From positions 186,001 to 246,708 of the forward strand of contig QPGO01000123.1 in the NCBI GenBank assembly GCA_008632985.1: a stretch of DNA of 60,708 bases. Reading direction: 5' to 3'. The number at the start of each line of letters is the position of its first letter. Positions within the stretch are counted from its first letter, which is position 1. Below, piece after piece: positions 25,400-55,680 of this stretch. The notes beneath the pieces were generated by a model. The model ran no database searches. It was not told the DNA's origin and saw nothing but the letters and a program-made list of their open reading frames with translations. The position numbers and the translations under genes are program-made. Source of the stretch: Psammoneis japonica. Lineage: Eukaryota.

Positions 25400-27070
25400 G
25401 CAGTCACAGATTCGTGAACTGCTCTTCCATGCGGCGGGTGGTGAAGCTGCAACAAGATCTGGCTTGTCCTGGGGTTGGTGAAGACTGAGATTGAGGACAG
25501 ACAGGCCAGTGTTGAAAAGGATGAAGAGACAATCCTTCAAAGTGAACGAGAGACTGGCTTTGCAGCTGTGAATGTGTTGATCAACAACCAGCTCCGTGAA
25601 TGGGTTTTGAACATCATTTGTGGGTTTGTCGCCAATGAAGACAACTCACAGTCACCAATGGTTGGGCAACTTAACAAGTTCAGGACTGGAAACAAAGCCA
25701 GCATTGTGATGATGGATTTTCATTGGTGTGGTGTGGCTCTGAAATTGTTTCACATGAGTCTTGAATTTTCCAAACAAGACATGTTTGGGAGCAACCATCC
25801 CTCCCTGGCATCCACTCACCACAAAGTTGGCTTTGCCCACACACAAAAAAGGGAGAATTCAATGCTGCAATTGAGAACACATCATGACAGCATGCAAGGT
25901 GCAAAAGTTGTCACTCTCAGGGATGGATCACCCTCACACTGCCAATTCATGCAGAGCCTTGGCCCATCTTAAGTTGGCAGCAGGAGAAACAGTGGAAGCA
26001 GATAAAATGGGAATCAAATCCCCGCAAATTGAAGAGGACATCCTTGATGGGTGAGGGAAATTGTGGTTTGCCCTTTTGCACAAGCCAGTTGGGCAAGCAC
26101 ATGTGAAACAAGGAAACCTTGTTGAAGGGATTGTTGAGTGCCAGTCATGTCATGCTTCACAAGTGGAGAACTTTCAGGGCTGTGATCATCCAGAGGTTGC
26201 ATGCACCCTTTGTGACATTGGAGCTGCTCTTTTGTGTAATGGTGTCTACAAGCATGCCCTGGCTTGTTTTCTCAAAGCCCAACCAGTTGTTGAGAAAGTC
26301 TGTGGATCCACAAATGACAAAGCATTGTTGCACAATGCTCTGGTTCTTAATGACATGGGCACATGCATGAGCAAAGTGGGCATTGTGGATGAAGCGCCCG
26401 AGGCTCACAAAAAGAGTTTTGAAATGCAATTGTTGGTTTTGGGTGAGGTTCATCTGCTTGCAGCTGATTTTCTCAGCAACTTGGGGGCTGCTTGTCCCAG
26501 CAGGGGAAGAATGAAGAATCCATTGTGCTGCATGACAGGTGCCTTGAGACAAGAAAACAGTTGCATGATGTGGGACATTGGCTCATCAGTCAGAGTCACT
26601 TAGACCTTGGAGTGGTCCACCTCAATGTCAATGACACATGCATTCTGCAGATTGAGCATTGGAAGATGCCACTGAAAATCACAAGACTTGTCTTTTTAAC
26701 AACTCAGGCCTTGGCCCAAAGCTGTGTTTGTCCAAAGAAGCGAGGCCTCACTCTGAGAGCCCATTGAGTTTCATGGGGCATTCAACAAGCATGTTTGTCA
26801 GCGAACTGTGATGAAAGATGTAAAAGCATCTCCTGCATGGCTCATGTCTTTTGGGTGAGAGAGCATGTCACACTGACGGGGTTAACAAGTCATGCCCAGA
26901 TGAACTCTCAGTGTGATGAAATGGTTGAGGTGCATGGAAAGAACCCCAGTGGTTGGTTCATTGTCAAGCTGCACAGAGTTGAGGGATCGCCATTGGAAAT
27001 GAAGAAGTTAAAGCTGGCAAATCTGATGCTTGGTGCTTGGCACAAAAAGTCACAATTTGCACAACATTGA
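25400..27070 (+). pseudogene. Decayed kinesin-light-chain-type TPR protein gene
   Basis: Fragments FGSNHPSLASTHHKVG, DHPEVACTLCDIG, LVLNDMGTC...LLVLGEVHLLAADFLSNLGAA fit TPR_10/12-type repeats, with stops, frameshifts and His/Cys at expected Tyr positions. Confidence 0.7.
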
Positions 27071-30283: not shown

Positions 30284-30760
30284 AACCCAGCAACCACTGC
30301 CACTGCTGCTGTCTTTGTCAACAACAAAGCTGCTGCCCACCATGCCAATGTGACCAACAAAGCCCCCCAGTGCTCTCCAGCCATTCCACCCAAAGATCTC
30401 AAATTTCCCATGCACATTGGCACAAAATTCCTGTGATTGTTGCTGCATCCCCTGGCACACAGTGGAGTCCACTGTGGCCATCCCAAGACAACTGAGCACT
30501 TGCATTGTCACGCAGATGGCTCCAACCCAGCAACCACTGCCACTGCTGCTGCCTTTGTCAACAACAAAGCTGCTGCCCACCATGCCAATGTGACCAAAGA
30601 CCCCCAGCACTCTCCAGCCATTCCACCCAAATGTCTCAAATTTCTCATGCACATTGGCACAAAATTCCTGTGATTGTTGTTGCATCCCCTGGCACCCAGT
30701 GGAGTCCACTGTGGCCATCCCAAGACAACTGAGCACTTGCATTGTCATGCAGATGGCTCC
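30284..30760. repeat. Near-perfect 240-bp tandem duplication
   Basis: aacccagcaaccactgccactgctgctg at 30284 and 30524, with near-identity continuing to gcagatggctcc. Confidence 0.9.
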
Positions 30761-32065
30761 CTTCTCTCTGCAAGGGTGTGGTGGCTGGTCCAAAGCCAGT
30801 CATGTCAGAAAAAAGGGGCCACGTTGACACAAGACAAGGCCTTTGCTCCCCAACCAGCAAGGTTGTTGTTGGCTCCCTGCCAGAGACACAATGGAGTCAC
30901 AAGGTCATTCAAAGACAACTGGGCACTTGCATTGTCACACAAAAAGCTCAATTGGTGGGGTGGCTGTGGCAAATCCAGTCATGTCAGAAAGAAAAGGGGC
31001 TGCGTTGACTCAAGACAAGGCTTTTGATTCCCAACCGTGGTTGTTGCTGGCTCCCCTGAGATGCAATGGAGTCAGCACCCAGTGCCATCCAAAGACAACT
31101 GGGCACTTGCACTGTCACACAGAAAGCTCTCTTGTCTCTGAAGGTGGGGTGGCTGGGGGCCAAAGCAAGGCAGTCATCAGCTGCGTCAGAAAGAAAAGGG
31201 GCTACATTGGCCCAAGACAAGGCTTTTCCTTCCCAACCATTGTTGCTGTTGCCTCCTGTGGACCCAATGGAGTCTCTTGTGCCCATCCCAAGACAACTTC
31301 TGAGTGCTTGCACTGTCACACAGATGGTTCCCTTGTCTTTGCAGGTTGCTTGTGGCTGGGCCAAAGAACCCAGTCATGTCAGAGAGACAAGGTGCTGCAT
31401 TGACACAAGACAAGGCCTTTGCTTCCCAACCATTGTTGTTGTTGGCTCCTCTGGGATGCCATTGAGTCACCAAAAATTCACAACAAGACAACTGAGCACT
31501 TGCACTGTTGCACAGATGGTTTTCTTGTCTCTGCAGGTGGGGTGGCGCTGGGCCAGCCCCAGTCATGTCAGAGAGACAAAAAGGGCTTTGTTGACACAAG
31601 ACAAATCCTTTGCTTCCCAACCATTGTTGTTGTTGTTGTGTTCTCTGGGACCCAATGGAGTCATTCAAGGCCATCCCAAGACAATGGAGCACTTGCACTG
31701 CCACACAGATGGTTCCCTTGTCTCTGCTGGTTGGCTGGACCACCAACAAAGCCAGTCATGTCAGAGAGACAAGGTGCTGCATTGACACAAGACAATGCCT
31801 TTGTTTCCCAGCCATTGTTGTTGTCAGCTCCCCTGGGACCTGTTGGAGTCATCCAAGGCCATCCCAAGACAATGGAGCACTTGCACTGTTGCACAGATGG
31901 TTCCCTCACTTGTCTCTGCAGGTTGCACGACTGGGCCAAAGCCAGTCATGTCAGAAAGAAAAGGGGCTGTGTTGACACAAGACAAGGGTTTTGCTCCCCA
32001 ACCATGGTTGTTGGCATGTCCCTGACAACCCAATGGAGTCCTCCAATGCCATCCCAAGACAACTG
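30700..32065. repeat. Diverged tandem array of about 7 units of ~180-200 bp
   Basis: Recurrent ccatcccaagacaa..gcacttgcactg..cagatggttcc..ccagtcatgtcaga..ttgacacaagacaa..cccaacc, anchors near 30716, 30905, 31085, 31283, 31485, 31671, 31859, 32049. Confidence 0.85.
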
Positions 32066-33269
32066 CACACATCCTTTGCCACATCTGTGGGCCTGATCCT
32101 TGCACACCTTGTGCAGCTGGGCATCTGTCATCAAACTCACTGCCAGAATGTTGACCACCAAATTCCATGGGCAGCAGCATCCACCAGAGTGGGGTCACCA
32201 ACATGTCGGAGAGACATGGCCAAGTTTCCTGCCACTGGTTCTGTGGCATTGTTGTTGTCACCATCATTCAGAGTCTTCTCCAGCTCATTGCATGGTGCAC
32301 AAAAAATCCCTCACCCATCAACAGCAATGCCAACATTGCCACCCACCCTGCCGTTGTCCACAAAGGTGCCAACCTGCTTGCTGAGAAGGACAGGATGGGT
32401 GTGCTTGTCAAGAGTGAAACCAAGGGTGAAAAAGTTAACCAAGTTGTGTCATTTCATGCAGAAGCAGGTTTTTGGTTCTGGTTGCCTCCAAAATGGGGTG
32501 CAGCAGTGGCAGATCCAGGGCGTTTGTGTCCACTGGTGAGCTTCACCACCAAAATTTGAAAGTTCTGCCTCCTCTTGGGCAATCTCAAACCAGACTTCAC
32601 ATGATTTGTTGGGTTGCCGGAGCCCCCCCCCCCACACACACACACACTCAGCACGTCGAACAATTCTTGCAGAAGCTGTGTTTTGTCAAGGGTGGTGTCA
32701 ACAATCCACAAGAACTTGAACCACACTGATCAATTGAACATGAAGTGAACCCTTTGGAACAGAGGATGTGTGGCCAATGAAATGCAGCCATTGTTTTCAT
32801 TTTGCGATCATGGTGACAGGAAAGATGAGACATTCTTTCCAGTCTCTGTCATCTGGCAATGGCTTTCCAAGCAGCAGCACCATTGCTTGCTTCATGAGAT
32901 GCAAAGACCATGCCTTGGTCAGTTTCTTTGGCAACCACAACAAGAACCCAAGCAACTCTTCCTGCTGTTCCCAGTGTGTCTCTTCCTGCAGAACTGGAAC
33001 TGTGCTTGCCAAAGTCATTGTCAGGGTTCAGGCCAAAATGGAAAAAAGAAGAACACTGGGGATGCTGTTGTTGTTGTTGTTGTTGTTGTTTTCGTCATCA
33101 GACATCCAACCAGGGACAGAGTGGATTGTGACAGGTGTGTGCCATTGTTGTTGGTGGATGTTAGATTGGAGGATGAGTTGTGCAGTGTTCAGCAGAGAAA
33201 AAGGACAAATGCAGCAAAAACAGAGCAAAACAAAGGCACAGAGCTGACAAGTGGAAGGAGAAGGGGACA

Positions 33270-38083: not shown

Positions 38084-40606
38084 CTAGAGAACACGGCAAG
38101 TTTCGTTGACGGATTCACAAGAGATTTTGCAGCTCTCAACATCCTCGGGGCAGGTGAATGGACCGGTCAGGTTGTTGTCATAGAGCCACAGAGTTTCGAG
38201 GCTAGTCATGTTATAAATACCAGAAGGAATGGTACCAGTCAACTTGTTCTTGAGGAGAGAAAGACGTAATAAATTTGTCAACTCTCCGATTTCGTTGGGG
38301 ATAGGGCCAGTGAGTGAGTTTCGATTCAAGAAAAACATTTCGGCGTTTGTCAGCAGACCAAGCTCCGAAGGGATGGCTCGAGTGAGAAGGTTGGTTCCGA
38401 GGTGAAATTGCTTGACGTTGGAAAGGGCACCGAGCTCACTTGGAATAGAGCTTGTAAAGTTGTTTCCATTCAGAAGGAGCTGCTCTGTGTAAAGAGAAAC
38501 GAAAAAATGCAACTGTGAGTATGAGACGAACCAAGGAAGACTGACAGTCAAAACTCACCCAAGTTTGATTGGAGACCAATGGTAGAGGGAATTGTCCCAG
38601 AAAGATAATTATGACGAAACCAAAGGTTTTTCAAGTTTGTCAAATTCTGGATCTCATTTGGAAATTTCCCAACAAGACGATTGCCTTCAAGGTATAGAAG
38701 AACTATGTTCGAGGAAGAGAAACAAGTAAATAAGTAAGTCACTGATTCTTGTTCAGGCAGTATCTCGACATCGGATTCAAACAACCTGCTATTACCTAAA
38801 GAGCTCAAACGGCCCAAGGTTGATGGGATCGTTCCAGAAAGCTGATTTTCACAAAACGAAAGGTCAGTCAAGCGCGCCAAGCGACCAATCGTGGATGGGA
38901 TTGTTCCGGAGAGTTTATTCTTGTATATGCTCAATTCGGCTGGTCGAAGTAGAGGCAAGGATACGTCGTCATGTAGAGTTAGAATAAGAACAGCCTCTCA
39001 ATACTAACCGTCACGACTCTAACATAACCTCTGTTGAAACTTACTCAATCGGGTAAGGGCGCCAATATCGGTCGAGATTGTGCCTTGTAGACCGCTTCCG
39101 AGCCTAAGTGTCACTGTTCAAACGTACGTCAAACAGGCATCAGCAGGATCATTGGCACAAGAGAAGATCATACACGTAGCAATCAAGCTTACATAGATTC
39201 GTCAAGAGAAATAATTCAGTTGGAATAGTGCCTGTAAATTCGTTCTCCACCATTCCAAGAAAGTGCAAATTTGTCAGGAGTCCAAGCTCCGATGGGATGG
39301 TGCCACTCAATCTATTCTGATCGACATTGAACTCTGTTAACAGAGTCAGCAGCGCAAGCTCTGTAGGAATTGAGCCCGTCATGGCGTTACCAAAAAAGCC
39401 GATTAGTTCAATTGAATTCGAAAGAAACGCAAGTTCCGGTGGTATAGTCCCTTTCAAACCATTGGTATCGAGATCGATGGCAGTAACTTCACCTTGGTTT
39501 GTACACAGAATTTTCATTGTTCCCTTGGCTTGCCACCACCGTCCACATTCAGGACCATCGTCTAACCACAGATCGGTAGTTGTCCAGTTATGTCCGCTGG
39601 TACTGAAGTAAAGCGTAGCTAAAACGTAACGCTGGACGATCTGCATCTGTCCGTAGTCGTCAATGTTGCTATTGTTTGCGAGCCACTTGACTGCCTGGTA
39701 CTGAGGCGTTGATTGATTGAACAGCGCAGCCCCATTGTCGAAAGAACGGTGCGCGAGAGACTCACTCAACTTCTTGTGGAGTGGTGTGGTGGGCTCAGGA
39801 GTCGGAGGCGGCGTAGAAACTGGCACGGGTCCAGTGGGGTTGTCGTCCCGGGTGAGAACGACAGAAAGAGCAATGGCAGCGACCAAAAGCACAAGAATGC
39901 CAGTAAAGAAAAGTCGTTGGCGTCGAAACTCGGGATCGCGTAGGTTGAAGAACTTCTTGAGGATTTCGCCCTTGCCGACAACTTTTGCAACCGCAACATT
40001 CTCTTCGCGCTCTTGTAAGATGCGGTTCTGCTCTTCAAGTTGCTGAATTCGGCGCGCCTCTTCTTCTGTATCCACCAAATGGGCCGATACGAGATTCATG
40101 GAAAAGTCCTGTTCTTGATGAACGCCCCCGACAGCTCCTGGCATCATGGATATTTCCTCTGCAGAAAACCCATAGCTTATTGCATCACCATGAATTCCAG
40201 GAACAGCGTGCGCCCCGGGTGAGTTTTCAGCACCATCGTCCGGTGATTCCACCTCACCTTGGTCTTGTCCATGCATGCGAAAGGCTTCAGGATCATCATA
40301 CTGTTCATCATCACGCTCAGCAACATTAGCAGTCGTAGCTTCCTGAACTCGACCACGCGGAGGAGGAGATGTCCTTGCAGCTGCCCTCTTCTTGATCGAG
40401 GGAAACGCATTCTGCATTTTCTTCTTCCACTTCTTTGTTTCGGTGGAAAGAGGCTCTTCCATGGAAGAAGTGGGAGGGTCTTGTAGAGGTGGAGCACATT
40501 CTTGTCGGTTGTCGGTAGTGCCCGCAGTGTGCCACTTGATATTGCCGGAAAACTTTACCCAAGAACCAGTGGAGCGGTCCGAGTCGTTCTTCTTGTTGCT
40601 GGACAT
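38084..40606 (-). CDS. Diatom-type LRR membrane protein (N-terminal region, single TM, C-terminal plant-like LRRs); 5 exons
   Basis: PGAHAV motif; TM FFTGILVLLVAAIALSVVL; TPQYQAVKWL..IVQRYVLATLYFSTSG..W..W..EC.W cap; LxxNxLxGTIPSELG repeats. Exons 40606-39193, 39113-39045, 38939-38796, 38702-38559, 38484-38084 (GT-AG). Confidence 0.88.
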
Positions 40607-41249
40607 TCGTGTTTCTGCTGAATTGCAAAACAGAATAGGAACCGAGCGCAAACTCTAGTTAGCCAAAAGTCAAAACCGAGGCATAGTGATACCGCGTAAC
40701 AGCATCGACTGCTCCTGGTACTTGCCTTCTTTTGTTGTTCAAGTGTCATCGTGAGTGTATAGTTTCTTTTTTTGTGTGAGGCGAACCGCTGCTTCGAGAC
40801 AAGTAACCCTGATACTGTCCTGACACTCGGCTTCGGGTAGCATTGCAGTAAAGTTTCTACGTGACATCTGTTCGTTCGTCGGTGGGGACGGAGCGCATGC
40901 GACTGCAACACGCATGCTGTTGGAGAGAACGAAAGCATATTCATTGCTATGCGATGACGACGGATGGAGAATTATGAGCTTGAACACAATTGTAGCTAAT
41001 GTAAATGAAATATATTGATTCGTTCCTTTGATTTTGCATGGCTTAGGACAACAGAGCGACCTTGTTGGAATGATTCTCACACCATTCCATTGATTTGCCA
41101 CAGTATCGGCGACAGTTAAGGATGTAAAGCAGACATTTAATTCCGTCGTTCGCGGTGGGAATCAATGACAATGTCAACCTGACGCTACCGGTATGGCCGG
41201 TCGGCTGCCTGCTGGCGGCTGCAAACATCGTGCCTTTTTTTTGGTGAGT

Positions 41250-41480
41250 GTTTTCAAACGAGAGAGCGAGAGAAAAGCTCGGTCAAAAAGATCGAAAAAT
41301 TTATTTAGGAAAAAGAAAAATGATGACGTCACTACTTAAATTAATATTTGACTTACTGTACAATACACCAGATTTCAACGGATATTTTTCGCGCGGTAAG
41401 GACTGAGGCGAGCGCGCGGCGAAATGACGTTGTCAGTCCCGCCTGCGCGAAAGATATTCGGGACTCACCGAGGTTGCGTC
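41250..41480. repeat. Repeat copy A (CG and TA intact), homologous to 42866-43113; possibly a transposon terminus
   Basis: tcggtcaaaaagat..aaaaattt...ccagattt...gttgtcagtccc...attcgggactcacc.aggttgcgtc shared with copy B. Confidence 0.85.
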
Positions 41481-41599
41481 GTGCTTCACCGCGGCAAAAA
41501 ATTCTGACCGATGTGACGACAGTGCGCCGATGTCGACAACTTTTGCTGGCAAGCACATTCGCTGCACCCAATGGGCATTAACTCTTTATCTATACAACC

Positions 41600-44500
41600 G
41601 TCTACTTTGTGCATCAGGTGCAGCCAATTTGATGAAATGGCACCAAAATCATGCACAACAAAACAAAGCACACATTGTGGTGTGTTGACATGCAAAAGCC
41701 ATGGAGCGTCTCGCATTTCGTTGGATGAGCACTTTGTCCTTCCTCCATTTAAGGTGGGCACACTGATAAAAAACACAACATGTTTCTCTCTAGATGGAGT
41801 GTCAAACAATGTGCTCTCCATGATCTGGCCAGAGAGTTGACGACCACTGCTGCAGCATGCGGCGTTTGCCGTCCAACCCCCTGTTGACATTGTTGCTTGT
41901 GTGATTTTTTGGGTGTTTGTTTTGATTCACAATCTGCTTGACCAAGACAGATAGAGAACCCAGGCACTCTTTTCTTTGTTTGGCAGGTGTCAGCATGAAC
42001 TTGACAGCCAACCGAGTCGTGTGCATCGTGTGTGTGCCATGTGTGACACGTCAGCAGTGACTCACAGTCACACACACCCAGTGGACAGACATCAGGACAC
42101 CTGGATTGCAGGAGATCTTATCCGATCTCTCTTCTGCACTCACTTTTTTTTCTGACTGGCACTGCATTGTGTCATCACTGTCCCAGTGTGCGTTAGATTG
42201 TGCTGTGCTGACAGACCCTCTCTGTCTGTCAAGTTGTGAGCGCCATTTCGCCATTCCTCTGCTGTCAGAACACCCACACAAAGCAGAGCTTGTGCCATGG
42301 AGCCCCATTTTCTCAAATGAAACACCATCTGTGTCTCACCATGTTTTGCCACCATCTGTGCTGACAGGACAAACAAACCCATCGATTGACAAAGATGATG
42401 ACCACAAGCATTGATTTTGGACCCAACTCCCTGCACAACAATGCCCACCCCAATTGCCTGAATGCAATGTGTTTGGACATTGTTCTGGATCTGTTGGTGA
42501 TTCTGGATGACTTTGCACCACCCGGTGTCCACAACAATGCCAACAAGATCTTGCTCCGCAAAATCATTGATGAGATGATCAAGCCTCAAGCAAGCTCTGT
42601 CACAGACCTGCAACATGTTGGACCCATCACAGACTGAGCTGATCTCAACCTCAAAGCACCAGGAATTGTCCACATGCAATGTCTGACACCTGCATCACTT
42701 CTGCAAGCAATGACCACAGCAATTGATGCTGCCGGAGAAGACATGACCACAGTCACTGTTGGCACCAACCACCTTGAATTCCACCCCGGAGACAACCTTG
42801 AATGCAACAACAGGGGCCATGATGATGCTGCCCCCTTCCAAGTCACTGCCAAATGCATGCCTTTGGTTTTAAACAAGAGAGCAAGAAAAACAAGAGAGCA
42901 AGAAAAGTTCGGTCAAAAAGATTGAAAAATTTGTTTGAGAAAGAGAAAAATGATGATGCCAACTGGACAAAAAACAGCACTAAATTTCCTGTGTTAAAAT
43001 GCGCCAGATTTGAATGGATTTTTTTGCACAGCAAGGGCTGAGGTGAGTGCACGGCAACATCATGTTGTCAGTCCCACCTGCACAAATCATTCGGGACTCA
43101 CCAAGGTTGCGTCCAAAATGGCGCTGACTGCATCATCCTTGCAGATGGTTCCCTGTGTGTCGGCGCAGTTGACTGGGATGCCAAGGCCTTCCTTTGCTGC
43201 TCCATCATCTGCAAAGACATCTCACTTCAACAAATCCATTCTTGGCATGCTGCACTCACTGAGATTGCCGCCATGCCTCCCATGGCATGCACGTCCACCC
43301 ACTGTGGCCGCACTTCTTCAAAAACCATGATGAATGAGCAAGGATTTGCTGCTGGCAACACTGCAGCCAATGACCTCCCACTCTGCATGCTCGCTCAGAG
43401 CTGGACCAGATGAAAACCATCATCTGTCAGCACCTGCAAGAAAAAGACATGTTCCCATCCAGCTCTCCAAGCTCCTTGACATCATGCATCAATGCTCTGG
43501 AGACAGTTGCCTGGCACTGAAAATGACAATCTTTGATTGCGCCACCTCACACAGCACAAGCATTCATGCAAAATGATCAAGACATGTCCCAAGCAGAATG
43601 ATCTTGCACTCCTGAGCTGCCACACAGAATTTCAAGATTTTCTGCAGCTCAAGGCTGTCCTCAAAGATGCAAATGCTGCTTTGGGCAACCTGGGCATTCT
43701 GGACATTTTTGTCAGCAACACATGACACAGCAAGTTCCTTCATTGCAAGACTGCCAAGGCGTGCAAAGACAGCAATGAGAAGCACCATTGCAAGACAAAG
43801 AAGATCATTTGTTCGCAACCCATGCAGGCAATGCAAACTGCAAGCCAGCACACCCCTCAATGAAGTGGGTGCCACACCCTCTGGCTGAGACTCCAGCACA
43901 TGAAGACACCCCACCTGATGTGCAAGAACACAGCTGGTGGCAGATTCAGCAAGCAAGACTGGGTGGGGACATGGGAAGACTGGGCAAGAAAGTGCGCCCC
44001 AATGCAATCAACACAAAAAGGAACACCATCACCCAGTCAACAATGAAGATTTCAATGAGTGGTGACTGCTGTGGGAAACATCACCAAAAACGGAGTTGAC
44101 AATGACACTGCCCCAATGCTGTGCTTGTTTGCACAAGTCACACTGCTGACAGCAAAACAAGCAGAGAAAGTCCATGGGCAAAAGCATGGTGGTGGGAACA
44201 GAAAAGGAGCAAGACAAAAAAAGAGAAAGAAGGGGGCTGCACCCCCATTGAAGAACCATTCTCCTGCTGCCTTGGGATGACAAGACTGCAGATGCCATTG
44301 TGGGCAAAAAATGGACCAACAAGGAAGCACACACATGATTCTGTGACAATGTGCTGAAATTCATGAAGAGCACTGTGATGTGGAGAGTGGAGAAAGATGG
44401 TCGATTCTGGAAACAGCAACGCTGCAGAGCTTGCTGCAGCAAGCAGCAAGGCTCTGGGGGCTGTTGATGTTGAAAAATCACTGGAAAATTTGGGAGTGCA

Positions 44501-45550
44501 AGGCCATGAAGGACAAGAAGAAGATGCAACAAGAGGGAGATGTTGATGGGGATGACAATGATGAGAATGAAGAAACCCTGCCCCCCTGTGCGCCAGCCGC
44601 CCAACAAAACAGCACAACTCACATGGGAAGACACAGGAACAGAGCAACTCAACAAGCTGCATGTGGAGGCAAAGCAAGACAGGGCAAGTGAGCCAGGTGT
44701 GCAGTTCAAAACAGGGCACAGCAATGACAAGAAGAAGAAAAGTGATGAAAAAGGCAAGGGTGTTCCAACCATGAAAAACTGGCACAGAAGGTGGCAAAAA
44801 CACAAGCCAATCTCAAGCTTTCCAGCAATGACAAGGATGACATGGAAGAGGAAACAGGAAAAGACAATGCAGAAGAAAACTGCTCAAACAAAGATGAGCA
44901 AGACACACAAAAATCCAACAAGCCAGTCCAGCAAATGAGCAGTGCCCGCTGAAAATCTGAAACAGCGCACAGCAGCAAAGCAGCAAAATTGGCAATCATT
45001 GACAACTGTGCACACTGCACTGCATCATTAAAATTAAACACAAAGGTCAGTCTGAAATGTTGCAATGAAAAGGCTTTTGATTGACAGGTTTCTGTGGGGA
45101 TGGAGGGTGGGCACTCTCGTGGGGAAAATGGGTGGCTGTTTTTCATGGCAAATGGTGGAGTTTTCCTCCCAGGAAGGGGGGTCAGACCCCACAGCAATAA
45201 AATGTTCATCTGTCACAGTTGACAAATTTTTGCCATGAGCACAACCAGCAGTCTGTCACAGTGTTAATTTGTCACCTGTGAAAATGTTGAAAATTGCTGT
45301 GAGACAAGCAAGTGGGGTCGATCACTCTGTGATGCGTGCCCTGATGCAGTTTGAGCAGATTTTCTGCTGCTGTCCTGCTCTGTCTAGAACTCTCCTGCCA
45401 TCTCTCACTCATCATGTTCATTGATTTTTTGCACCCACTCTGGGGCACCTCCATGCATCATCCACCTCTTGACACTCTCTCACAACAGCACTCTTGTGTG
45501 TGTGAGAAGGCAGCAACATTCTTCTTGTGTCTCACATGGTTCATTTGTTT
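41600..45550. other. CpG/TpA-depleted degenerate block with ruined unidentified ORFs
   Basis: Composition shift; a read-through-looking frame at ~42390-42870 (+) broken by a stop; no intact gene. Confidence 0.75.
42866..43113. repeat. Repeat copy B (CG->TG/CA and TA->TG/CA mutated)
   Basis: Aligns to 41250-41480. Confidence 0.85.
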
Positions 45551-45845
45551 GAGCTACGACTGTGCCATGTTGACACAGGCTGCATTTAGGGTGAGTTAGC
45601 GAACTTGTTGCGACAGACTGCTTATTTCACACCTTCTTCGTGAAGCAAGCTCTTGCTTGAAAAACAGTGAGAGAAAAACATGAGATTTGCGACGTGACGA
45701 AATTTCGAAATGTGATTCCTTCGACTGAGAATGGTTTTTCGGTTTTCGGTGTCCAAATCGGATTGCGAATTCCGACAATGATGCTTTGTACTTTGTACTA
45801 TCCAGAGAGACTAATCACAGCCAGCCGAAAAACGACAGCAACATC

Positions 45846-46700
45846 ATGGAAGAAGAACAACTGACACTAACGGAACGCATGCGCACCACCACCAAGGCCA
45901 TTCATGACAAGAGCGATCGCTTGGTAAATCTCAAGCTCGCACTGGTGCTTGTGTCGAGGTCGCTCTATGGCGAGGCGCTGGGGCTCTTTATGCCCATTTA
46001 TGAAAAACTCGAAAAGGCCATGGAGCATGAACCCAAGCTGCGTCCTCTTGCTGCTCATTTGGATAAAATGAGACGTACTCCAGGGTTCCTAGCAGACATG
46101 GCTTTTTACCTTGGCAAAGACGTTCCTCTCAAGAAGACAGACAATGAAATTCTCAAATCTTATATAGAACACTTGGAGGAATTGGAGCGAGAGGATCCCA
46201 TGCTGCTTGCCGTTTATGTCTACCACATGTACATGGCTCTCTTGGCTGGAGGATACATTATTCGAAAAACAGTCAAGCGAACTTTGGGATTAAAAGGCAA
46301 CGAGGGCGTGCAGGCATTGACGTTTTCCGCAGACAGCACACAATTGAAAAAGTCCCTGAAACAGTGCATGGACGAGGAATTCAAATTTACCAAGCAACAA
46401 CAAGAAAGGGTGCTGGAGGAGTCAATTAGAATGTTTGAACTCAACAATACTCTCGTGGGCACGGTCAAAGACACGCCGTCCTTTCAACAGGTTCAAGCAA
46501 AGTACATCAAGTGGCTTGCCACTGGGCTGAGCGTTGTGCTTGTTGGCTTGGTTGCCGCGATTATCAGTACAGAAGAAGCCACCAACAAGACTATCAAGAA
46601 GCATGACGGAGGACATGAACGTACAGTAGAGGTAGTTGAAGTGTATGACCACTTTCCGTTAGCAAGCTCGTTGCCGGTACTCGAGAAAGAGCAATCGTAA
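45846..46700 (+). CDS. Heme oxygenase with C-terminal membrane anchor
   Basis: MRTTTKAIHDKSD (proximal His), LLAVYVYHMYMALLAGG (distal helix), EESIRMFELN, TM WLATGLSVVLVGLVAAII; ATG at 45846. Confidence 0.88.
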   Translation: MEEEQLTLTERMRTTTKAIHDKSDRLVNLKLALVLVSRSLYGEALGLFMPIYEKLEKAMEHEPKLRPLAAHLDKMRRTPGFLADMAFYLGKDVPLKKTDNEILKSYIEHLEELEREDPMLLAVYVYHMYMALLAGGYIIRKTVKRTLGLKGNEGVQALTFSADSTQLKKSLKQCMDEEFKFTKQQQERVLEESIRMFELNNTLVGTVKDTPSFQQVQAKYIKWLATGLSVVLVGLVAAIISTEEATNKTIKKHDGGHERTVEVVEVYDHFPLASSLPVLEKEQS

Positions 46701-46830
46701 GATTTATGATACAGTTAAGGTATAAAGTCAATTTGCTGTGTTTAAGAAGTAAACATCAATTCTCTTAACGATAAAAGAGGTTATTATGATTACTAGATCA
46801 TCAGCAGGATAACAGATGATTCCTCTTGCC

Positions 46831-47629
46831 TCAGCGATACAAGTGCTCGCTCATGAGGTTCTTTGCAATCTGCCTCTCCCACTTGTCTCCGTTGGACAAG
46901 AGCTTTTCCTTATCATATAGAAGTTCTTCCCTCGTTTCAGTAGCAAATTCGAAGTTGGGTCCCTCCACAATCGCATCGACTGGGCAAGCTTCCTGGCACT
47001 GTGATCAAAAAGTGAGATCAACAATTCAATCATACAAAAATCGACCTCAAGAGATTGGGAGAACTTACATAACCACAGTAGATACATTTCGTCATGTCAA
47101 TATCATAACGCGTCGTACGACGAGCTCCATCCTCACGCTCTTCCGCATCAATCGTAATGGCTTGTGCGGGACAGGCCGCCTCACAAAGCTTGCAGGCAAT
47201 GCACCGTTCTTCGCCCGACGGATAACGCCTCAGGGCGTGCTCGCCGCGAAAGCGAGGACTGAGGTAACCCTTTTCGTACGGATAGTTAATGGTGACTTTG
47301 GGCTTGAGTGCCACCTCTCCCGACAACCAGAGTGCACGAAAGATTTCCGTCAAGAAGAAAATCTTGGACGATCTCTCAAAAATATCCTCCCACGATGTCT
47401 ATAAACAGCCAAAGGGGAGTGAGAAAAAAAGGCCTGCGTAGAAAACACGTAGAAGCTGGTATTGAACACTCATGATGACGCTCGCATCAACACTACTTAC
47501 GGGAAGAATATTATCCTTGTCTTGTGCCGTGCTCATTTCTCTTGCAGTGCTTCCAACAATCTTGAGACTGCTTGCTGCGCGTTTTGAAACAGCCGCTGAG
47601 CGGCGTGACGCCGCAATCAGGAGCGACAT
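46831..47629 (-). CDS. NDUFS8: Mitochondrial complex I Fe-S subunit 8 (TYKY/NuoI); 3 exons
   Basis: Exons 47629-47501, 47398-47069, 46998-46831; [41 protein letters not shown]...[30 protein letters not shown]-rich presequence. Confidence 0.96.
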
Positions 47630-48689
47630 GGTCGTCAGTTTTACGCACAACGAACAAAAGTGAGAGTTGGGTTGTTGCACGTAGAACTTGTAAGGAATTC
47701 CACGTGGGCGCCGAAAGTCTACCTATGACACTTCCGAGCTCTGAGCTCGCTAAAAGATTCAAACTGCTGCTGTCTGTGCTGTCTGCCGCTCACATTTTCT
47801 TTTTGCGCTTTTTTGCAACCTGGTGACATTCTGTTGAATTGCGAGCTTAGCTTTCCTTCCAGATTTTCTAAAGATTTTTCAGAACATTTTGAAAAGAATG
47901 TCTGAGTCAGAGCATTGCTTGCTCGCTCGGGACTGGAGCAAACATGCACTCCACCAGCAAACACGCGCTGGCACACACGTGGGCAGGAGAAAGAGACCCA
48001 AAATCCAGCACTCTCTCTCCCAGGATTGCGTGAATTGTGAGGACGATGATTTGAAAACATCACCAACCCATGAGCTGGAATTGCAAATGCCTGAAAGCTT
48101 CCTTTGCTGATGACTCAGTGAACACATCATCGTTGTCCAGCTGCGCTCCCTTGGTGGTGGGGCCCTGTTCTCTTGACTGAGCTTGAGAGCCTCTCCTTTT
48201 CTGCGGTCTCAGAAATGGAGCAAGTGGCATGAAAGGGGTTCAGTTCTTGGATGGAGTTTGGGATTTTTGGCCAAATCAATGCTTGCAAAGCATCCTCAAA
48301 GGCAGTGCATTTGGCTGCTGCACAGGCTTGGCAAGCACGGCGCACCGATTTTTCTTTCCTCAACCTCCTGCCAGTGGGACAACATGTGCTTTTTTATGCT
48401 GCAGCAAGACTGGCCAACAGTTGGAGGAGCATGTCTCTAGAGAGTGCACCACCCATGCTGCCAGCATCAGCTGCTCTGTGGTGAGAGCCCCTTTTGTTCG
48501 TTGTCATGTGTTGTTCCAGTCACCTCAAAGAAAGCAACCAACTGTGACAGGAGTTGAGGCATCAAGAATGGGATTCATGACTGACTGCATGATTGTCGCT
48601 GTTGCTGCTGCAACCCTGTTGCAACACAATGAAGAACAAAATGCAGCTGCAGTGCAATTGACACAAAAGGATCAAACACAAAAATGAGT

Positions 48690-49780
48690 GCATCTGCAGA
48701 TCCGGAGCTGTCACCATTGAAATCAGCGCGCCAAAAGCACCAACTCCAACAATGCTTCTGTCTGCCAACAGGGACACAGAATGTCCAAATCCACCATGTC
48801 TGGACTTGCCATTCAAAGGATCATTGATTTGACTCCATTTGTCTGCATTGGTGTTGCATTGCAAGACTGCAACTTGACCGGCATTGTCCAATCATCCACT
48901 GATGTCATGCCAATGACTTCTTGAAGCCAAGACAATTCCATTTCCACTCAATGGCACTGACCAACCAAAAACATCACCAGGCTGTTGCACCACAAGAGTT
49001 TGACCATGTTGACTCCACATCAAAGTCAAACAGTTGTGCAAATGAACAAGAACTCTCTCATTGCTTCCATGTGTGCCAACAGCCACGACCAAATCACACT
49101 GTGATCAAGAGACACAGAAATTCCAAACCAACCAAGTTTGATTTGTCCATTGATTGGATCACCCAGCACATCCCATTTTGACAATGTAGAATTGTGTTCA
49201 AACACTGACACCTGGCCAGCAGTGTCTCCAACCAAATCTGCTCCAACACCGACAACAGCTCCGTCCACATTCAAGGACAAACAGAAAGTCCAAATTGATC
49301 ATCCATGACAATCAAACCAGCCCAGAACCACTGCCATTTTCCATGTGGTCTTTAGAAGCTCCTGCAGCTGGAACATCACCTGCATCCAAGAGCAACACAG
49401 AAATGCCAAAATTTGTCACCAGCATCTTGTCCAAGAATGTCGCCACCGAGTTGAACCCCATGATCCAGTGCAGAGTCACACTCAAACACACAAATGTGAC
49501 TGGCATTCTCTCCACCACTGTTGTTTTTGTCAGCTTCAATGGCAAGAATTGCGTTGTTGCTGTTTGATGAAACAGACTCTCCAAAATCACAAGGGCCAGC
49601 TTTTCCAATCAAATCTTGGCCAATTTGCATCCATTGTTGGGTGCTTGGATTGCATCGATGGCCAACAGCAGAGCTGGGATTGGAGACAATTGCTCTGCAG
49701 CAACATCCATGACACTGCCATTGCAAGACAAGGAGACACAATTGCCAAAATTGTTGCCTTCACCTCCCCCCCCCCCCCAA
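48690..49780 (-). pseudogene. Decayed FG-GAP-like beta-propeller repeat protein gene
   Basis: Repeated W.Q.G.D/PI.G....FG.SVSL..DG..V.VGA units: QWMQIGQDLIG..DFGESVS, VQLGGDILGQDAGDKF, WDVLGDPINGQ...FGISVSL, WSQINDPLNG...FGHSVSLLADRSIVGVGA; many frameshifts. Confidence 0.8.
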
Positions 49781-50199
49781 AGACTTGACCAATGGGATTC
49801 GATGGACTGGCGGGAGCTTCTGGAGGAGATGAAGTGCTGGTGGATCCCCCAAAACAAGCAAGAATTCACAACTTTTGTGGTTGGTTGCAAACTCTGCACT
49901 CTGCCCAACCATTGCAGCAACCAGAGCAACCACTGCATGTGAAAGAAGCATGATTTCTTGCTGCGTCCAAGTCATTTGTGCCTGAAAATCTTGTCCCAGT
50001 TTGGCCAAAGAAGGGTCGCCAGCAGGCAGCTGCTATGGTGGTTGAGGCATGGTTGTCAGCTCCGGTTTGGGTGCTGTCATGACTGCAACATTGTCTGCAT
50101 CTGATCCTCATTGAACTTCCTGTCCACCTTGACCAACCGCAAAAGCCTGGAAACTGCAGCAGAAGCTCTTGGAGAAATTTCCACTGCTTCACTCCAAAT

Positions 50200-51330
50200 C
50201 AAGTCTTCTTGATGTTGCTGTTCCAGCTGTGCATGTTCAAAGCAGGCTGAGACTGAAAATTCTTTTGAGCAGCCTTCTGCTTGGCATGGCAATCCTTGGC
50301 TAAGTGTTGGGCCCAACAGCCATGGAATTCACAGAACTTCAATTCCTCTCCCTCAAATGTCTTGCCCTTGGACTCTGCAGGCTTTGGTTCAACAATGTGC
50401 CAAGCCCATTTTCCTTCAAATTTTGGTTTTTTGCCCTTCTTGCATTTGGCGGCATTTGACTTCTTCTGAGATGTGCTGGCGGCAGAAGGTTTCTAACTCA
50501 ATGACCCCTGGCAAGACTTTTGGATGTGCAAACTCTTGAGTTTGTTGACTTTTGCACAAAGAGCAGTTGGGAGGCTCCACTTCTTCTTGAGAACGAGTGC
50601 CTGATGCTCCATTTTGGCACAAATCATGAGTTGGTTGCAGGTGATGTCTTCTCCATCATCACAGTCATCATTGATTTGCTCTTGATGTGCTTGGCGAAGA
50701 TCTTGTTGGTGCAGGCAGCACATCCGGCAATGATTTTGTGATCAAGTTGTTGGATGTTTTGCCATGGCTTGCCAGGGATTTGAGCCTTGTCCCCACATGC
50801 TTGTTGAAGGGCTTGATGTTGTGCTTGGCAGTGTCCACCATGTGTGCGTCCAAGTCAGCAAGCTGGGAATGATGGAAGTGAGAGGCTGCAGTGCAAGCAT
50901 CAATCTTGGCCTTGGAGAGCAATGTCTTGAGGCAGAGCACACCACAGTCAACATCACCAGCACAACACTGCTCAGAAGCATTTGCCACAACTTGCTTGGC
51001 ATGCTCGTCCAAGGAGTTGTGGAGGCGGAGACAAAGCTGACAGTTGCTCTGAGTCTCCCAGTTCTGCCTGTTGATGTGGGCAGTCATGACCATGCAAACC
51101 TGCTTGGCAGCGATGTTTCCACACTGGGCGAGCATGCTGCGGTTGGCTGCCACAGCTTTGGCATCTCCTGCAATGACATCAATGGCAAGGATGCCTCCCC
51201 AGCCAAAGGTTTTGGACCCAGTGTGCAACTTGTCAAGGAGTGAGAAGACGCTGGGCTTCTTGGTGCTAAAAAGAGTCAGAAGAGCCTCCTTGGCAGTCTT
51301 GAAGATGCCAGCATTGCCCCAATGACTGAG
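50200..51330 (-). mobile_element. Degenerate LTR-retrotransposon gag-like ORF of diatom type; no pol seen next to it
   Basis: LHNSLDEHAK...GVLCLKTLLSKAKID...LADLDAHM...NIKPFNKHV...LASHGKTSNNL then W.QH..KDC; resembles diatom retroelement gag from recall, not from a search. Confidence 0.55.
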
Positions 51331-51334
51331 GTCA

Positions 51335-51781
51335 AGTGCAGTGTGCAGCCACTGCAAGAGTCAATGTGTCACGGCGACGTGTTGCAGCCTTCAAGTGTCA
51401 CAAAGGGCGTGACAAAATAACCTTTTGTCTGCATGCATGCTGCACTGTGAATTCACAGCGGAGTGGTTCATCGCAACCATCAGGCAGGAGGCCAGGGGTT
51501 CGAAACCCTGAGTGGGAGTTGTCTGCAGCAACGTTGATCACTGTCGAACGCGCAAAACTCTGTGCAGTTCTGCATGTTCCTTCACACGCACCCACACTGT
51601 TCCACCAAAACCGTGCAGTGTCAGCACACGTCAGTAAAGAGCCGCATGGACGCGTGGTGCATGGGGAGGAGTGCAATGTGCAGCTGCCAACAAGAGTCAA
51701 TGCATCATGGCGACGTGTTGCAGCCTTTAAATGTCACAAAGGGCGTGACAAAATAACCTTTTGTCTGCATGCGTGCTGCAC
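51335..51781 (+). mobile_element. Candidate tRNA-derived SINE (51449-51781) preceded by a duplicate of its own 3' ~110 bp (51335-51445)
   Basis: A-box-like cAGCGGAGTGG at 51456, B-box GGTTCGAAACC at 51497; 110-bp direct repeats 336 bp apart, each ending in a tgcatgc-type tail. Confidence 0.45.
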
Positions 51782-53549
51782 AAGCAAGGCATCATGGGCT
51801 GAAGCTGGATGTCTTGCAAAGTTTTCAGCTGGAGGATTGTTCTGCACATCCAAGATGGGTTGGATGGCAGCAGGCATGGTGGCTGGCAGCAATGGCAGTG
51901 GTGAAATGAGCGGCATCCAAGGTGGTGTTGTCTTGACGTGCACAACATTGGGCTCTGGTTTCTGCAACAATTTTGAACCAAGTCAGGTCTCCACAGTGCA
52001 GAGGAAGCATGTGGGTTTGTGGCAGTTTGTGCCGCAGAGAGCAACACAGCAAAACAGACAATCATGCAATGTTGGATGTGCCAATTTCTAAATTGCAAGA
52101 ACAGAAATTACACCACTTGACAACCAACATCAAATGAGAGAAAACAAAAAGTGGCTTGCATTTGTGCTGGAACCAACACAGATGAACATGGTGCAAAGAC
52201 TTGTCAAGAACAAGAAGCTCTTGATTGCACAAAGAAGAATGGAAGGAAGGCTCCATTCTTGTTTTGAACCTCAGATTTCCAATTTTGTTGGTTGCATGAT
52301 CTGTGATTGGCTGAGACATTGATGGCAGTTTCTGGGCAGTCATTGCAACTCTTGGACTTGATGGCAATTGACGCATGAATGTGTGCATGTTCCCACACTC
52401 AAAAGTGGAGTGTGGCATGAAAAGTGAGCAATCATCCATGTCATGAGCCACTCTCTGTGGTGAGCTGAAAAAGTGGCAAGAGGGAAAACCGTTGGTGATT
52501 GGCGATTCATGTGCCAACGGCTGATGGTTTTCTGGAGATGACATTGCTGATGTCAGACATGGCGAGCTCCGTTTTCTAAGCCACCTGGAAAAGATGGCAA
52601 AAGCTGCATTGTCGCGGAGCTTTTGACAATGTCCAGATGAAAAGCTGACAGAACACCAAGGAAATGGAGAGAGAGAGAGATTGCAAAAAGCTGAGGGGTG
52701 TTGATGCAAAAAGAAAAGAAAAATTTTTGGGTGCCCATTTTGTGCTGGAATGCTGTTTTGGTGGCAAGTTCATTTTGAATTTGGGGAGTGCACAGTTTGT
52801 TCTGAACTGGCCAATCTTTTGAGATGGGGGCCCATCCACTGGGAGCAATCCATTTAAATGACAGCTTGTGACAGCTCAGCATTTGATGATTGTGCACAAA
52901 CTCGTGACTGAGGAGAGCATCAACTCAGGATTCCATGGATGGATCTCAATGAACAGTGCAAAACTGTGCATTCACATGACATGAAAACAATGTGTGACAG
53001 CTGTTTGCTTGGGGGCTCATTGTCACATCATTGAAACAGTGTTGATGGAATGTTCCATTCTTTAGAAGACATTTGGTCATGTGTCTGCCTGCTGTTGATC
53101 GCGGCAAGATTGAAAGGGCTGTGGAGATGTGCGCCAAAGTGATTGATGCAAACCCATCAAGAGAAGATGACAAGCCATTTTTCACTGGTGCAACTGTGCT
53201 CATTTGGAGATGTTTTGAGCAAATGAAGTTGTCATGGAGCACAAATTTTCCATTGAGTTTGTGACACTCTTTCCAAAAATGCTGATTTGTGGCATTGAGC
53301 TGTGTGCTGGCTGTCACACTCTGACACTCAGGTGATGACAGCATGTGGACACAAATGTGGAGTTGCACGTGGGCACACATGTGCAAAACTGACAAGTGCC
53401 AATGGCGTTTGAAGGGTGCTGCACACACCCACAACTGTGGCACCAGATGGTGCACACAGCACATTGTGCAGCATGCACCAGTTGCCAGAGTGTGACATGC
53501 AACAAAAAAAGCAAAACAATGATGACCGCACCAGTTGTGACTGAACACC

Positions 53550-55680
53550 ACAGTCATTTTGAAACCACCCCCTTTGCAAACCCCTGGCTCCACTGGTGGA
53601 GATGTCGGATCGACCAAGCAGGCATCGACGTCATGTTTGAACAGTTTGACTCAATTGAAGGACATTTCGTCTGTGCATCCCCCAAAGATCCAAAAATTGT
53701 TCGTTTTGCACTTTTCTTTGTTCTTTGTGGAGGCCAATGGCATTCAAAAACCTCTCATCATGTCTCTTCTTTGTCTCCATTGTCCTCTTCCATGAACAAC
53801 ATAACTCGTCATTGTTTTGTTTTTCAGCATCAACGCGCCCACCACAAAACTGAAATGATGCAACAAAAATCACCAGAAGACAATGGAGGACTCTGCCATT
53901 AAACCACTTCATTCAAAGCATTTGTCAGCTGGGCAGGGAGTCCTCCATCATGCTCTGCAAGTTGCTCTGGAGCTGGTCTTGACACTCCTCCCATGAAGTC
54001 AGAATCCTGTGCTGTGTCATGTGTTCAAAAGAGACACGACAACATCTGGTGCCTTTCCTTCTCTCTGTGGAAGTCAACTCGAGACCTTCCAAGAAAGCAT
54101 GGGTGCTGGATGGACTGGTTTGCCAATTGCCAGGGTGTCACTGGTTCCATGTGGGCAACTGATGGACTTGCACCATGCACTGATTTCAAGGTCATCACTG
54201 CCCCCCTGCTCTTTGGCTGCAGGGATTTAGAGCAGGTTGACTCACCACCTTTGAGGGTGTTTCATGAATGCAACAGGCATGAAAGTGGAAGCCAACTGCT
54301 GGAAAACAGGGAGCTAGCGTGCAAGTGTGGCAAGTGGTGTCTAGCATGTCCAGCAAGTCTCCGCAAGCATGTGCAAGCATGGCCTCTGTCGGAACAGGTG
54401 ACTGCCACAGAGAACAAGGGACTGTTTGTCCAGAGCAAGTTTGACAGAATCCTGGCTGCCACCCTTGAAGTCGCCTTCAACATTGTGGATTTACTTGGTC
54501 CCCATGTTTCTGGTGCCAAGCTGACAGACAAGGGACTCTTGGTGGGCCTTGCAGTGTTGTGTCAGTCCATCATGTTGCTGGATTTGTCAGACAAGAGCCT
54601 TTCTCAAGAAATGTCAAAATGGGTGCCAGTGGTGCCAGAGCCACAAGGAGCAGACCCGGCAACTGCACACAGCTTGGAATCAGCAAATGGATGAGAACTC
54701 GAAATGCTCTTCAATCCACAGGTCATGGCTTGCTCATGCTCTTTTGGACCTGGTGAATGAGCAGCCAAGGCCTCAGCAAGGTCTTCAGGAGCAGCACCTG
54801 CAGTGGCAGCCAGTGGAGGTGAAGAACTTGAGGCAGAAGAGGAGTCTCAGCATGGAGCATCAGAGATGTCTTCCCAACGATCTCATGACATTGGAAATCA
54901 GGACAAAAATGGAGACACATGATGTCAACATGTGTCATCATGGCATCCTGATCTTCCTTGATCATGGTCTTCTGGAGATTTGCAAGGTTCAAGCAAATCT
55001 GAGGACCTTGAGGGGCAGCCACAAAGAGAGGAGCCTTGTCAACAATTGGTCCAATGCGCTTGAGGTCTCCAGTCATCAAGCTTGAGGCATGATGAGCTTG
55101 AACAATCTTGTGATGGACAGTTGCGGTGGCATTGCTCTTGAGGACTTGAAGAGTAAATCCATCCAGAAGATCTTCAGGAGCAGATGTCTCATCCAAACAA
55201 AGGGCATTCAGGTGACGTTGAGCATCAGGTGGAAGATGGTGGGGGTTGAATTTGACCACAGTCTGCATGATCTTGGTCAAATCAATGGAAGCAGGGTTCT
55301 TGATCACCATGGCTGCGTGAAAAAAAATCAAATTCCTGTGCAGAATGCTGGCATGTTGTCTGCAGTGGTCGTGGTGATCACAAATCAAGAGAGAACATTT
55401 GCTGTGACAATGATGACAATTTCAATGGAGAAACATTGCCAAATCACAGAATGGGCGTTGTGGTGCACTCGTGTGGAGGAAGACAAACAGCATGCTGCTG
55501 CTCACAACCTTGCAGACTGGCGGTGTCGGGACAAAACAATGGACATCTGGGACAGAGATGACAATCGTGCACCAGATGAGAAAGAGAGTGAGCAAAGGAG
55601 AGATCATCGGATCTCTCCATGCTGTCCACGCTAGTCTGTCCGACACAAAGGAGTGCACTCCCCATCTTGCATGTCTGTCA
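53550..55680 (-). mobile_element. Unidentified degenerate element interrupting the Gypsy RNase H
   Basis: RNase H homology stops at 55681 and switches to a ~270-bp TGACA...TGTCA segment, followed by a 221-codon open frame. Confidence 0.3.

Follow-up and report, generated by a model that had tools for sequence, protein, structure and literature searches.

To our knowledge, the mutators so far known to be directed at repeats (RIP, APOBEC/AID and the decay of 5-methylcytosine) change C to T. RIP of ascomycetes mutates both copies of a duplication in this way and creates TpA, and decay driven by 5-methylcytosine turns CG into TG and CA equally often, at about tenfold above background. The sole precedent found for a host process running from A:T to G:C at TpA is a 2026 preprint on an unrelated alga, the rhizarian Bigelowiella natans (Mettrop et al., bioRxiv 10.64898/2026.01.13.699255). 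Its main text describes TpA hypermutation in NCLDV and virophage sequences that are integrated in the genome, with a de novo rate that exceeds background about 1000-fold in two viral regions of mutation-accumulation lines, a partial depletion (NCLDV Rho TpA 0.45), and ADAT2 as the proposed candidate enzyme. Diatoms, CpG, MITEs and flanking context are not mentioned in that main text, and no diatom report of TpA hypermutation was found in the literature searched, which lay outside subscription journals.

The window analysed here is the whole 60,708 nt stretch of Psammoneis japonica DNA (G000:C122:186001-246708; assembly size 91 Mb). As in the main text of the B. natans preprint, A:T becomes G:C at TpA to give TpG or CpA, on both strands and in restricted regions, and TE-related sequences, enriched in the TpA-depleted DNA of that alga, lie in the erased blocks here. 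The spectrum is the same, and the process is therefore not categorically new. Unlike the published case, the host is a diatom, about one third of the sampled DNA is affected with depletion to an o/e of 0.05, the targets are MITEs, LTR elements and dead gene duplicates, CpG decay follows, and ATA/TAT is lost ahead of TTAA; rates given below are relative, historical estimates, while that of B. natans is de novo. It differs from that case in lineage, scale, near saturation, targets, the coupling to CpG decay and a flanking-base rule. The locus also resembles fungal RIP (RID/DNMT4) in its repeat-associated, dinucleotide-specific, both-strand transitions and sharply bounded blocks, but TpA is erased rather than created (C to T at CpA is seen at just 1/183 sites of young converted copies), and a single copy of a linked pair is converted, B, with A spared (Table 1). 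Decay of 5-methylcytosine fits the CG half of the pattern, with 7 TG and 7 CA in B and, in young converted MITEs, C to T at 17/200 CpG sites versus 3/432 in other C contexts; the change of TA to TG/CA is beyond its reach, and CG decay here is the slower and later of the two. The pair and the MITE family together fix direction, TA-before-CG order, strand symmetry, domain dependence and the flanking-base rule, and the probability that a directional, domain-dependent, TA-first process is real is put at roughly 0.93.

Gene islands in the window have a CpG o/e of 1.02 and a TpA o/e of 0.52, compared with 0.17 and 0.05 in the blocks, where TpG/CpA reaches 1.84; base composition is almost equal in the two. 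Of the 57 N-free 1-kb bins, 32 are TA-low, and the bins from 42001 to 45500, around copy B, show TpA o/e of 0.00–0.08, CpG of 0.12–0.28 and TpG of about 2.0–2.5. The genome was sampled in 14 arbitrarily placed 10-kb stretches on 12 other contigs. Of these 140 bins, 47 (about one third) are TA-low, 37 of them CG-low as well and 10 with CpG kept; one bin of the 140 is CG-low with TA kept. MITEs and LTR elements lie in the blocks together with dead gene duplicates, and TpA loss is confined to such mobile-type DNA and duplicates, the island genes being spared. At paralog-conserved sites of the gene copy in the next block, 6/8 TA and 41/54 CG are TG/CA and no TA is kept; this copy is erased, while eight paralogs of the same large family have a CpG o/e of about 1.0–1.3 over the matched gene. 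We infer that the blocks are silenced, contigs being by nature blind to expression. Contigs of run X2 (labelled "DNA?") show CT..AC joints at four places and have no cover from 42557 to 45811. One gene of the assembly was used as a homology query, and its named homologues were from diatoms without exception.

Table 1. Positions of the repeat copies, their component parts and the neighbouring genes and blocks (window coordinates).
Feature	Position	Strand	Basis or remark
Copy A, largely unconverted composite repeat junction at gene-island edge	41256..41480	+	pairwise alignment
Copy B, converted duplicate of the junction	42866..43113	+	16/20 CpG and 7/10 TpA to TG/CA
End of dispersed repeat family	41256..41331	+	homology back to at least 40850; outgroups on C289, C232
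Fold-back hairpin in A, 82 nt	41379..41460		28-bp arms, 79% complementary
TA and terminal inverted repeat common with MITE family	41397..41443	+	TA to CA in B
Repeat element starting in A and running into the block	41397..42000	+	TA and CG conversion rise along length
TpA- and CpG-erased block around copy B	41700..45200		1-kb dinucleotide bins
LRR-protein gene (exon), spared island adjoining A	39149..40654	-	CpG and TpA normal
Heme oxygenase gene, spared island on far side of block	45729..46700	+	
Converted copy of large gene family, next block	48686..49750	+	compared with paralogs

Copy A lies on the upstream side of the LRR gene, 650–900 bp away, and retains 20 CpG and 12 TpA. It is a composite of the end of a dispersed family, a spacer, a fold-back arm (41379-41396), and a TA with the terminal inverted repeat from 41397 onwards. 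Aligned with 42888-43113 it shows 76.2% identity over 231 columns (E 4e-37), and the start of B is set at 42866 because of a 17-bp tandem duplication (42871-42904). Among the genome matches listed (at least 29), A and B alone cover the whole junction, the best others being 88% over 74 bp and 80% over 252 bp. This shared junction points to a single ancestor and equal age by descent, so that A and B appear, by homology, to be descendants of one 225-bp repeat junction. The hairpin predicted in A (-23.4 kcal/mol, z -2.98) is weakened in B (z -1.01).

The differences between the copies run one way. Of the CpG sites of A, 14/18 within 41270-41480 are converted in B, and two further conversions, at 41259 and 41267, complete the 16/20; in the reverse direction, one of five CpG of B is CA in A (16:1, sign test p = 3e-4). 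Ten TpA of A are aligned without gaps, of which seven are TG/CA in B, one is kept and two are otherwise changed, and the two TpA of B within the aligned part stand opposite TT and TA in A, with no reverse case (7:0, p = 0.016). Four of the seven are firmly anchored in the alignment (41302, 41306, 41364 and 41397), that at 41455 is ambiguous, and 41342 and 41345 fall in its poorly aligned middle. At the remaining sites A and B differ in 18/148 (12%), besides indels; tested against this background, the conversions have p = 1e-7 for CpG and p = 0.002 for TpA. The surviving TpA of B, at 42870, 42981 and 42995, are in TTAA, CTAA and TTAA, contexts that are refractory genome-wide. The first-pass annotation had quoted eight changes between the copies, all of which are present in the alignment, and the observation is confirmed. 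Its remark that other changes are fewer is correct per site and relative to CG and TA together (23), but not against CG alone (18 others versus 16). The pair by itself is small, and the weight of the case is carried by the family data.

Site 41306 is TA in all four outgroup copies, while site 41302 is TA in two, GA in two and TG in none. Site 41397 is the terminal TA, which is kept in 4/4 intact MITE copies. At 41455 the alignable family members (L007, L012, L019 and L026/L027) have CA, and the TA is mirrored in the fold-back arm of A. The annotation had named TG/CA in the family at the TA sites as the finding that would count against it; TA is found at 41302, 41306 and 41397, with 41455 left aside, and the directionality that it proposed stands, on the 16:1 and 7:0 asymmetries and on the TA kept in outgroups. 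Among coding sequences, two of three conserved Tyr positions read His or Cys in TA-erased DNMT paralogs and the third reads Phe, and two DNMT copies differ from one another by Tyr/Cys. TA is the ancestral state on three counts: the termini of the MITEs, the Tyr codons that are conserved, and the outgroups.

The MITE family that has its terminal inverted repeat in common with A is about 520 bp long, palindromic, TA-flanked and without coding capacity, as in MITEs of the Tc1/mariner type, and the locus itself is DNA-transposon-like. TA stands at both ends in 4/4 intact copies, and may represent the outermost bases of the inverted repeat rather than a target-site duplication. With a natural copy taken as the reference, 0/38, 1/38 and 2/37 TA are converted in three intact copies, while four young converted copies (two of them partly non-independent) have lost 97/114 TA and 17/100 CG at a divergence of 2.5–3.7% (about 3%) at other sites. 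Copy L039 has 21/26 TA converted and 0/22 CG, copy L017 carries 21 TG and 15 CA at its 38 TA sites, and the terminal flanking TA of the element is itself converted in converted copies. As TA is nearly gone from young copies that keep most of their CG, TpA erasure precedes CpG decay: the first is fast and affects both strands, and the second comes later.

Unrelated MITE copies make the choice between TG and CA independently, with same/different counts of 11/9, 9/9, 10/9 and 11/13, and 16/4 in one pair, whereas duplicated loci agree at 30/0 and 26/0. The changes are therefore heritable, and became fixed in vivo once each copy had inserted. One duplicated segment carries an older MITE, with 30/0 agreement, beside a younger one with 14/4, a difference suggesting that conversion continued after that segment was duplicated. 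An LTR element gives the same picture from five copies, no intact copy being used: among 4738 shared columns, 143 are mixed for TG and CA without CG, compared with 0.3 expected from CpG decay. Each copy carries 78–98 TG and 75–86 CA, and there are about 40 single CG gains against 0.6 expected.

In the four young converted MITEs, A has changed to G at 93/221 sites preceded by T, 12/278 preceded by A, 2/177 preceded by C and 0/164 preceded by G; in the LTR columns the counts are 43/368 after A and 14/350 after G. The secondary contexts thus rank TA >> AA > CA > GA. Surviving TpA were counted on both strands of 93 kb of TA-low and 108 kb of normal bins, giving 0 versus 640 for ATAT, 2 versus 626 for ATAC/GTAT, 93 versus 331 for CTAA/TTAG and 168 versus 338 for TTAA, and in the LTR copies 5/285 TpA are retained at ATA/TAT sites and 44/305 elsewhere (p = 6e-9). 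There is a context hierarchy, in which ATA/TAT is lost first and TTAA/CTAA survives. A strand preference set by the flanking base was considered and dropped, since MITE and LTR data conflict (at ATAA/TTAT, TG 27 and CA 17 in the MITEs, TG 21 and CA 36 in the LTR copies).

Several simpler sources of the pattern were rejected. Adenine methylation (6mA) at ApT as the trigger is at odds with the erasure of GTAC, which has no ApT, to a ratio of 0.02, and with conversion at A[A]T (9/61 columns) and G[A]T (3/72 columns) that is far from saturation. Double deamination of CpG as the origin of the TA of intact copies would demand 72 CpG in 524 bp (38 TA plus 34 CG). Biased repair of T:G mismatches (TDG/VSP-like) would mainly raise TG to CG changes, which amount to only about 1–2% per copy. 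Covariation of CpG and TpA is a mathematical effect, unable to yield an o/e of 0.05 or a loss of TA with CpG kept.

The contrast between A and B could also arise from age instead of position, if an active master had given rise to A only recently, too late for conversion to have reached it. All intact MITE copies are young (0.4–2.8% apart), three of them directly adjoin TA-low DNA, and in the region upstream of A 4/11 outgroup TA are already TG/CA, at 71–77% identity. MITEs L035, L044 and L048, which keep TA at 13–17% from the reference, were at one point taken as old but spared; they differ mutually by 0.4–1.6%, and were dropped as an age control because they form a young second subfamily. A near-identical master is, however, not found among the genome matches listed, the A/B junction was not returned elsewhere, and the 12% difference at neutral sites is the span over which MITE copies lose most of their TA, with the three outgroup-confirmed TA of A all kept. 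The far end of the element that starts in A is itself converted. Its family-conserved CpG are kept/converted 13/1 at 41397-41500, 4/4 at 41501-41650 and 4/10 at 41651-42020 (first versus last, Fisher p = 0.0013), and its TA 1/0, 4/4 and 3/6 over the same intervals. This gradient, spread over roughly 250 bp, places the boundary inside one element, and age as the whole explanation is improbable. The annotation was right that A is largely unconverted; as an intact copy at an island edge it was overstated, A being at the fringe of the block with its own element TA-converted from about 41530. Its dependence on position is upheld by the equal-age pair and by the CpG gradient, and both the domain and the time since insertion matter. 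A still simpler account, an error of assembly or base calling or a reversed polarity with TG/CA ancestral and A derived, is largely refuted and has a negligible chance of being correct. Contigs of short-read run X1 match both copies, with 0 differences in 944 bases of the A stretch and 1 in 2234 bases of the B stretch (at 43567, outside B), although X1 is possibly the source of the assembly and hence no independent check. The CA of family members at 41455 could be read in favour of reversed polarity; against it stand the terminal TA, Tyr and outgroup evidence, and against error the identical choices of separate duplicated loci.

Two further explanations accept the mutation pattern but assign it differently. 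The same directional, domain-restricted process could run through T-side or polymerase chemistry, by a modification of the TpA thymine that mispairs with G, or by error-prone patch repair (pol eta/iota-like) at T:G mismatches in methylated DNA. AA as the second context, in a WA-like order in both LTR and MITE copies, would suit it, as would the loss of TA and CG in the same domains and a rate influenced by the bases on either side of the duplex step. The preference of pol eta for TA over AA is roughly twofold, and that seen here is tens of fold. TA loss is moreover near complete in copies with few or no CpG lost, as in L039, which makes CpG mismatches unlikely triggers. On balance such chemistry seems rather unlikely. 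A RIP-like system with repeat pairing as the trigger (diatom DNMT4/RID) and a reversed outcome has still less in its favour, and we consider it very improbable. The targets are indeed repeats and duplicates, and the genome has 27 matches to C5-methylases, but a C5-methylase would change C to T, and the change here is A to G. One of two linked direct copies is affected with the other spared, and the eight gene-family paralogs keep their CpG, unlike the erased copy in the block. In the available text of PMC9998398, diatom DNMT4 falls into one group with RID, while the target described in the main text of the B. natans preprint (10.64898/2026.01.13.699255) is single-copy.

Under the preferred reading, in which a directional, TA-first process acts by domain, B would have come to sit in a domain of two in vivo mutational processes while A remained at the gene-island edge. 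Once mobile or duplicated DNA has entered such a domain, almost all of its TpA are soon turned into TpG or CpA, a step that the young copies document, through A:T to G:C change at the A of the dinucleotide in either strand, at an estimated 50–100 times the rate of A elsewhere, fastest at ATA/TAT and slowest at TTAA/CTAA. CpG then passes to TpG/CpA about ten times more slowly than TpA; the order is that observed in the MITEs, and the chemistry is presumably deamination of 5-methylcytosine laid down by DNMT5. The target would be set by a methylated, silenced chromatin domain and not by pairing between A and B. At about even odds, the first step may be the work of a host DNA adenine deaminase, converting dA to dI that is read as G, with a candidate enzyme that has an ADAT/TadA or ADAR fold and is brought to silenced chromatin; A-to-G and T-to-C chemistry are indistinguishable from sequence alone. 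Its likely role would be genome defence, with inverted repeats, hairpins and Tyr codons degraded and TA target sites removed. The chain as a whole, deaminase included, could equally well be right or wrong. More tentatively, and with appreciably less confidence, one may envisage a natural DNA adenine base editor of ADAT or ADAR fold, guided by silenced chromatin or RNA, with about 100-fold TpA specificity on either strand, that needs no more than a few percent of neutral divergence to saturate a new insertion, has altered one third of the genome, and belongs to an old SAR genome-defence system shared with B. natans and opposite to RIP.

A DNMT5-like gene (DNA_methylase, SNF2 and helicase, the DNMT5 architecture) lies within the window. 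According to the available text of PMC9998398, DNMT5 methylates diatom transposons, and in Phaeodactylum methylation is lost and young transposons are released when DNMT5a is missing. A single ADAT2 (G000:C26) is present in the genome, with HAE, PCIMC and FGCRN for the HxE, PCxxC and Asn positions, which is ordinary and not diagnostic; ADAT3 was not identified in the deaminase search of the genome. The further candidates are one TadA-like gene and two A_deamin genes (on C40 and C79), none of them unusual, and profile matches show no expansion (dCMP_cyt_deam 9, MafB19-deam 5, A_deamin 4 at 2 loci). The Tet_JBP profile has 0 matches here and likewise 0 in the control genomes. In the protein atlas the L146 exon falls into generic A_deamin clusters only and L144 has no usable match, and comparison with the PDB gives weak ADAR2 matches. 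The A_deamin gene on C79, an ADAR-domain paralog, has 317 homologues and is widespread in diatoms. No erasure was seen around its relatives in other algae (0/478 bins, from 42 of 80 metagenome loci, of at least 4 kb), a weak negative, as these are gene-flanking contigs prone to break at repeats. The wide occurrence of the type and the unerased flanks of its relatives count against the C79 gene as the enzyme.

The flanking-base rule can be set beside the known preferences of adenine deaminases, as given in the available text of two papers. TadA-derived editors (PMC10188366) prefer 5'-YAY and disfavour AA, and ADAR1 on DNA/RNA hybrids (PMC5389660) prefers a 5' T, with TAG the best site. Both convert dA to dI with a 5' T preferred, the context also favoured here, although TadA editors are engineered, ADAR activity is in vitro, ABE accepts CA, and neither is near-exclusive for TpA (PMC10188366, PMC5389660). 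The faster loss of TAY agrees with the YAY preference of ABE7.10 (PMC10188366) and the rank of AA above CA disagrees with it, while the survival of TpA before a purine is a mismatch with the TAG optimum of ADAR1 (PMC5389660). A natural DNA adenine deaminase of such specificity, if it is real, would matter for genome defence and base editing. A practical effect concerns annotation: with TAA/TAG stops and Tyr codons lost from the erased blocks, spurious long ORFs arise there and the ages of repeats are distorted.

Turnover of CpG sites is still going on in mature erased blocks, where nearly all TpA and most CpG have become TG/CA. The assembly was compared with short-read contigs of sequencing run X1, which may be its source, over window positions 43567–55267, and 24 block differences were examined (taken from 27 of the 40 rows listed, out of a table with 602 more rows). 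Among those listed, 15 of the 24 were CG versus TG/CA (seven in one direction, eight in the other), which shows that CpG is still turning over, and one, at 50035, was TA versus TG.

The C5-DNA-methylase family has 27 matches in the genome. Several copies of these genes (L112, L113, L114 and L118, on contigs C301 and C297) are TA-erased and retain much of their CpG, and are therefore gene duplicates that were hit recently. The DNMT5-like gene of the window is directly adjoined by an erased block (21.6–34.7 kb), an adjacency that is probably coincidental. Two deaminase loci lie on another contig. One, L072, carries a second, fused domain that by its motifs resembles a 2OG-Fe(II) oxygenase. Homologues of the other, L145/L146, are widespread in diatoms, and PF02137 is the only domain listed for them, with no dsRNA-binding domain.

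Features of the window and of the deaminase loci
Feature	Position	Strand	Remarks
DNMT5-like gene	window 13497-20705	-	DNA_methylase, SNF2, helicase C domains
TPR-repeat gene remnant	window 25445-26603	+	within large erased block
Degenerate tandem array	window 30670-32083		~190-bp unit; within erased block
Fold-back hairpin	window 41379-41460		82 nt
Open frame, L072	G000:C79:87006-90176		cytidine/deoxycytidylate-deaminase-family domain
Second ADAR/ADAT1-domain deaminase of the genome, L145/L146	G000:C79:343-347 kb		ADAR/ADAT1 domain

The hairpin, in the largely unconverted repeat copy A, prolongs the internal stem of the MITE TIR across the terminal TA, and its counterpart in the converted copy B is degraded. 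At the very border of erased DNA, young intact MITEs (L030, L031 and L033, on contigs C2 and C13) have inserted at TA sites. Transposons that target TA may be driven toward gene islands by TA erasure.

Tyrosine is almost absent from the TPR-repeat gene remnant, and the units of the tandem array are about 74% alike. The summed X1 contig depth is very high at 51000–52300 (up to 34,000) and 55000–56200 (up to 3,400), identifying both as portions of high-copy repeats.
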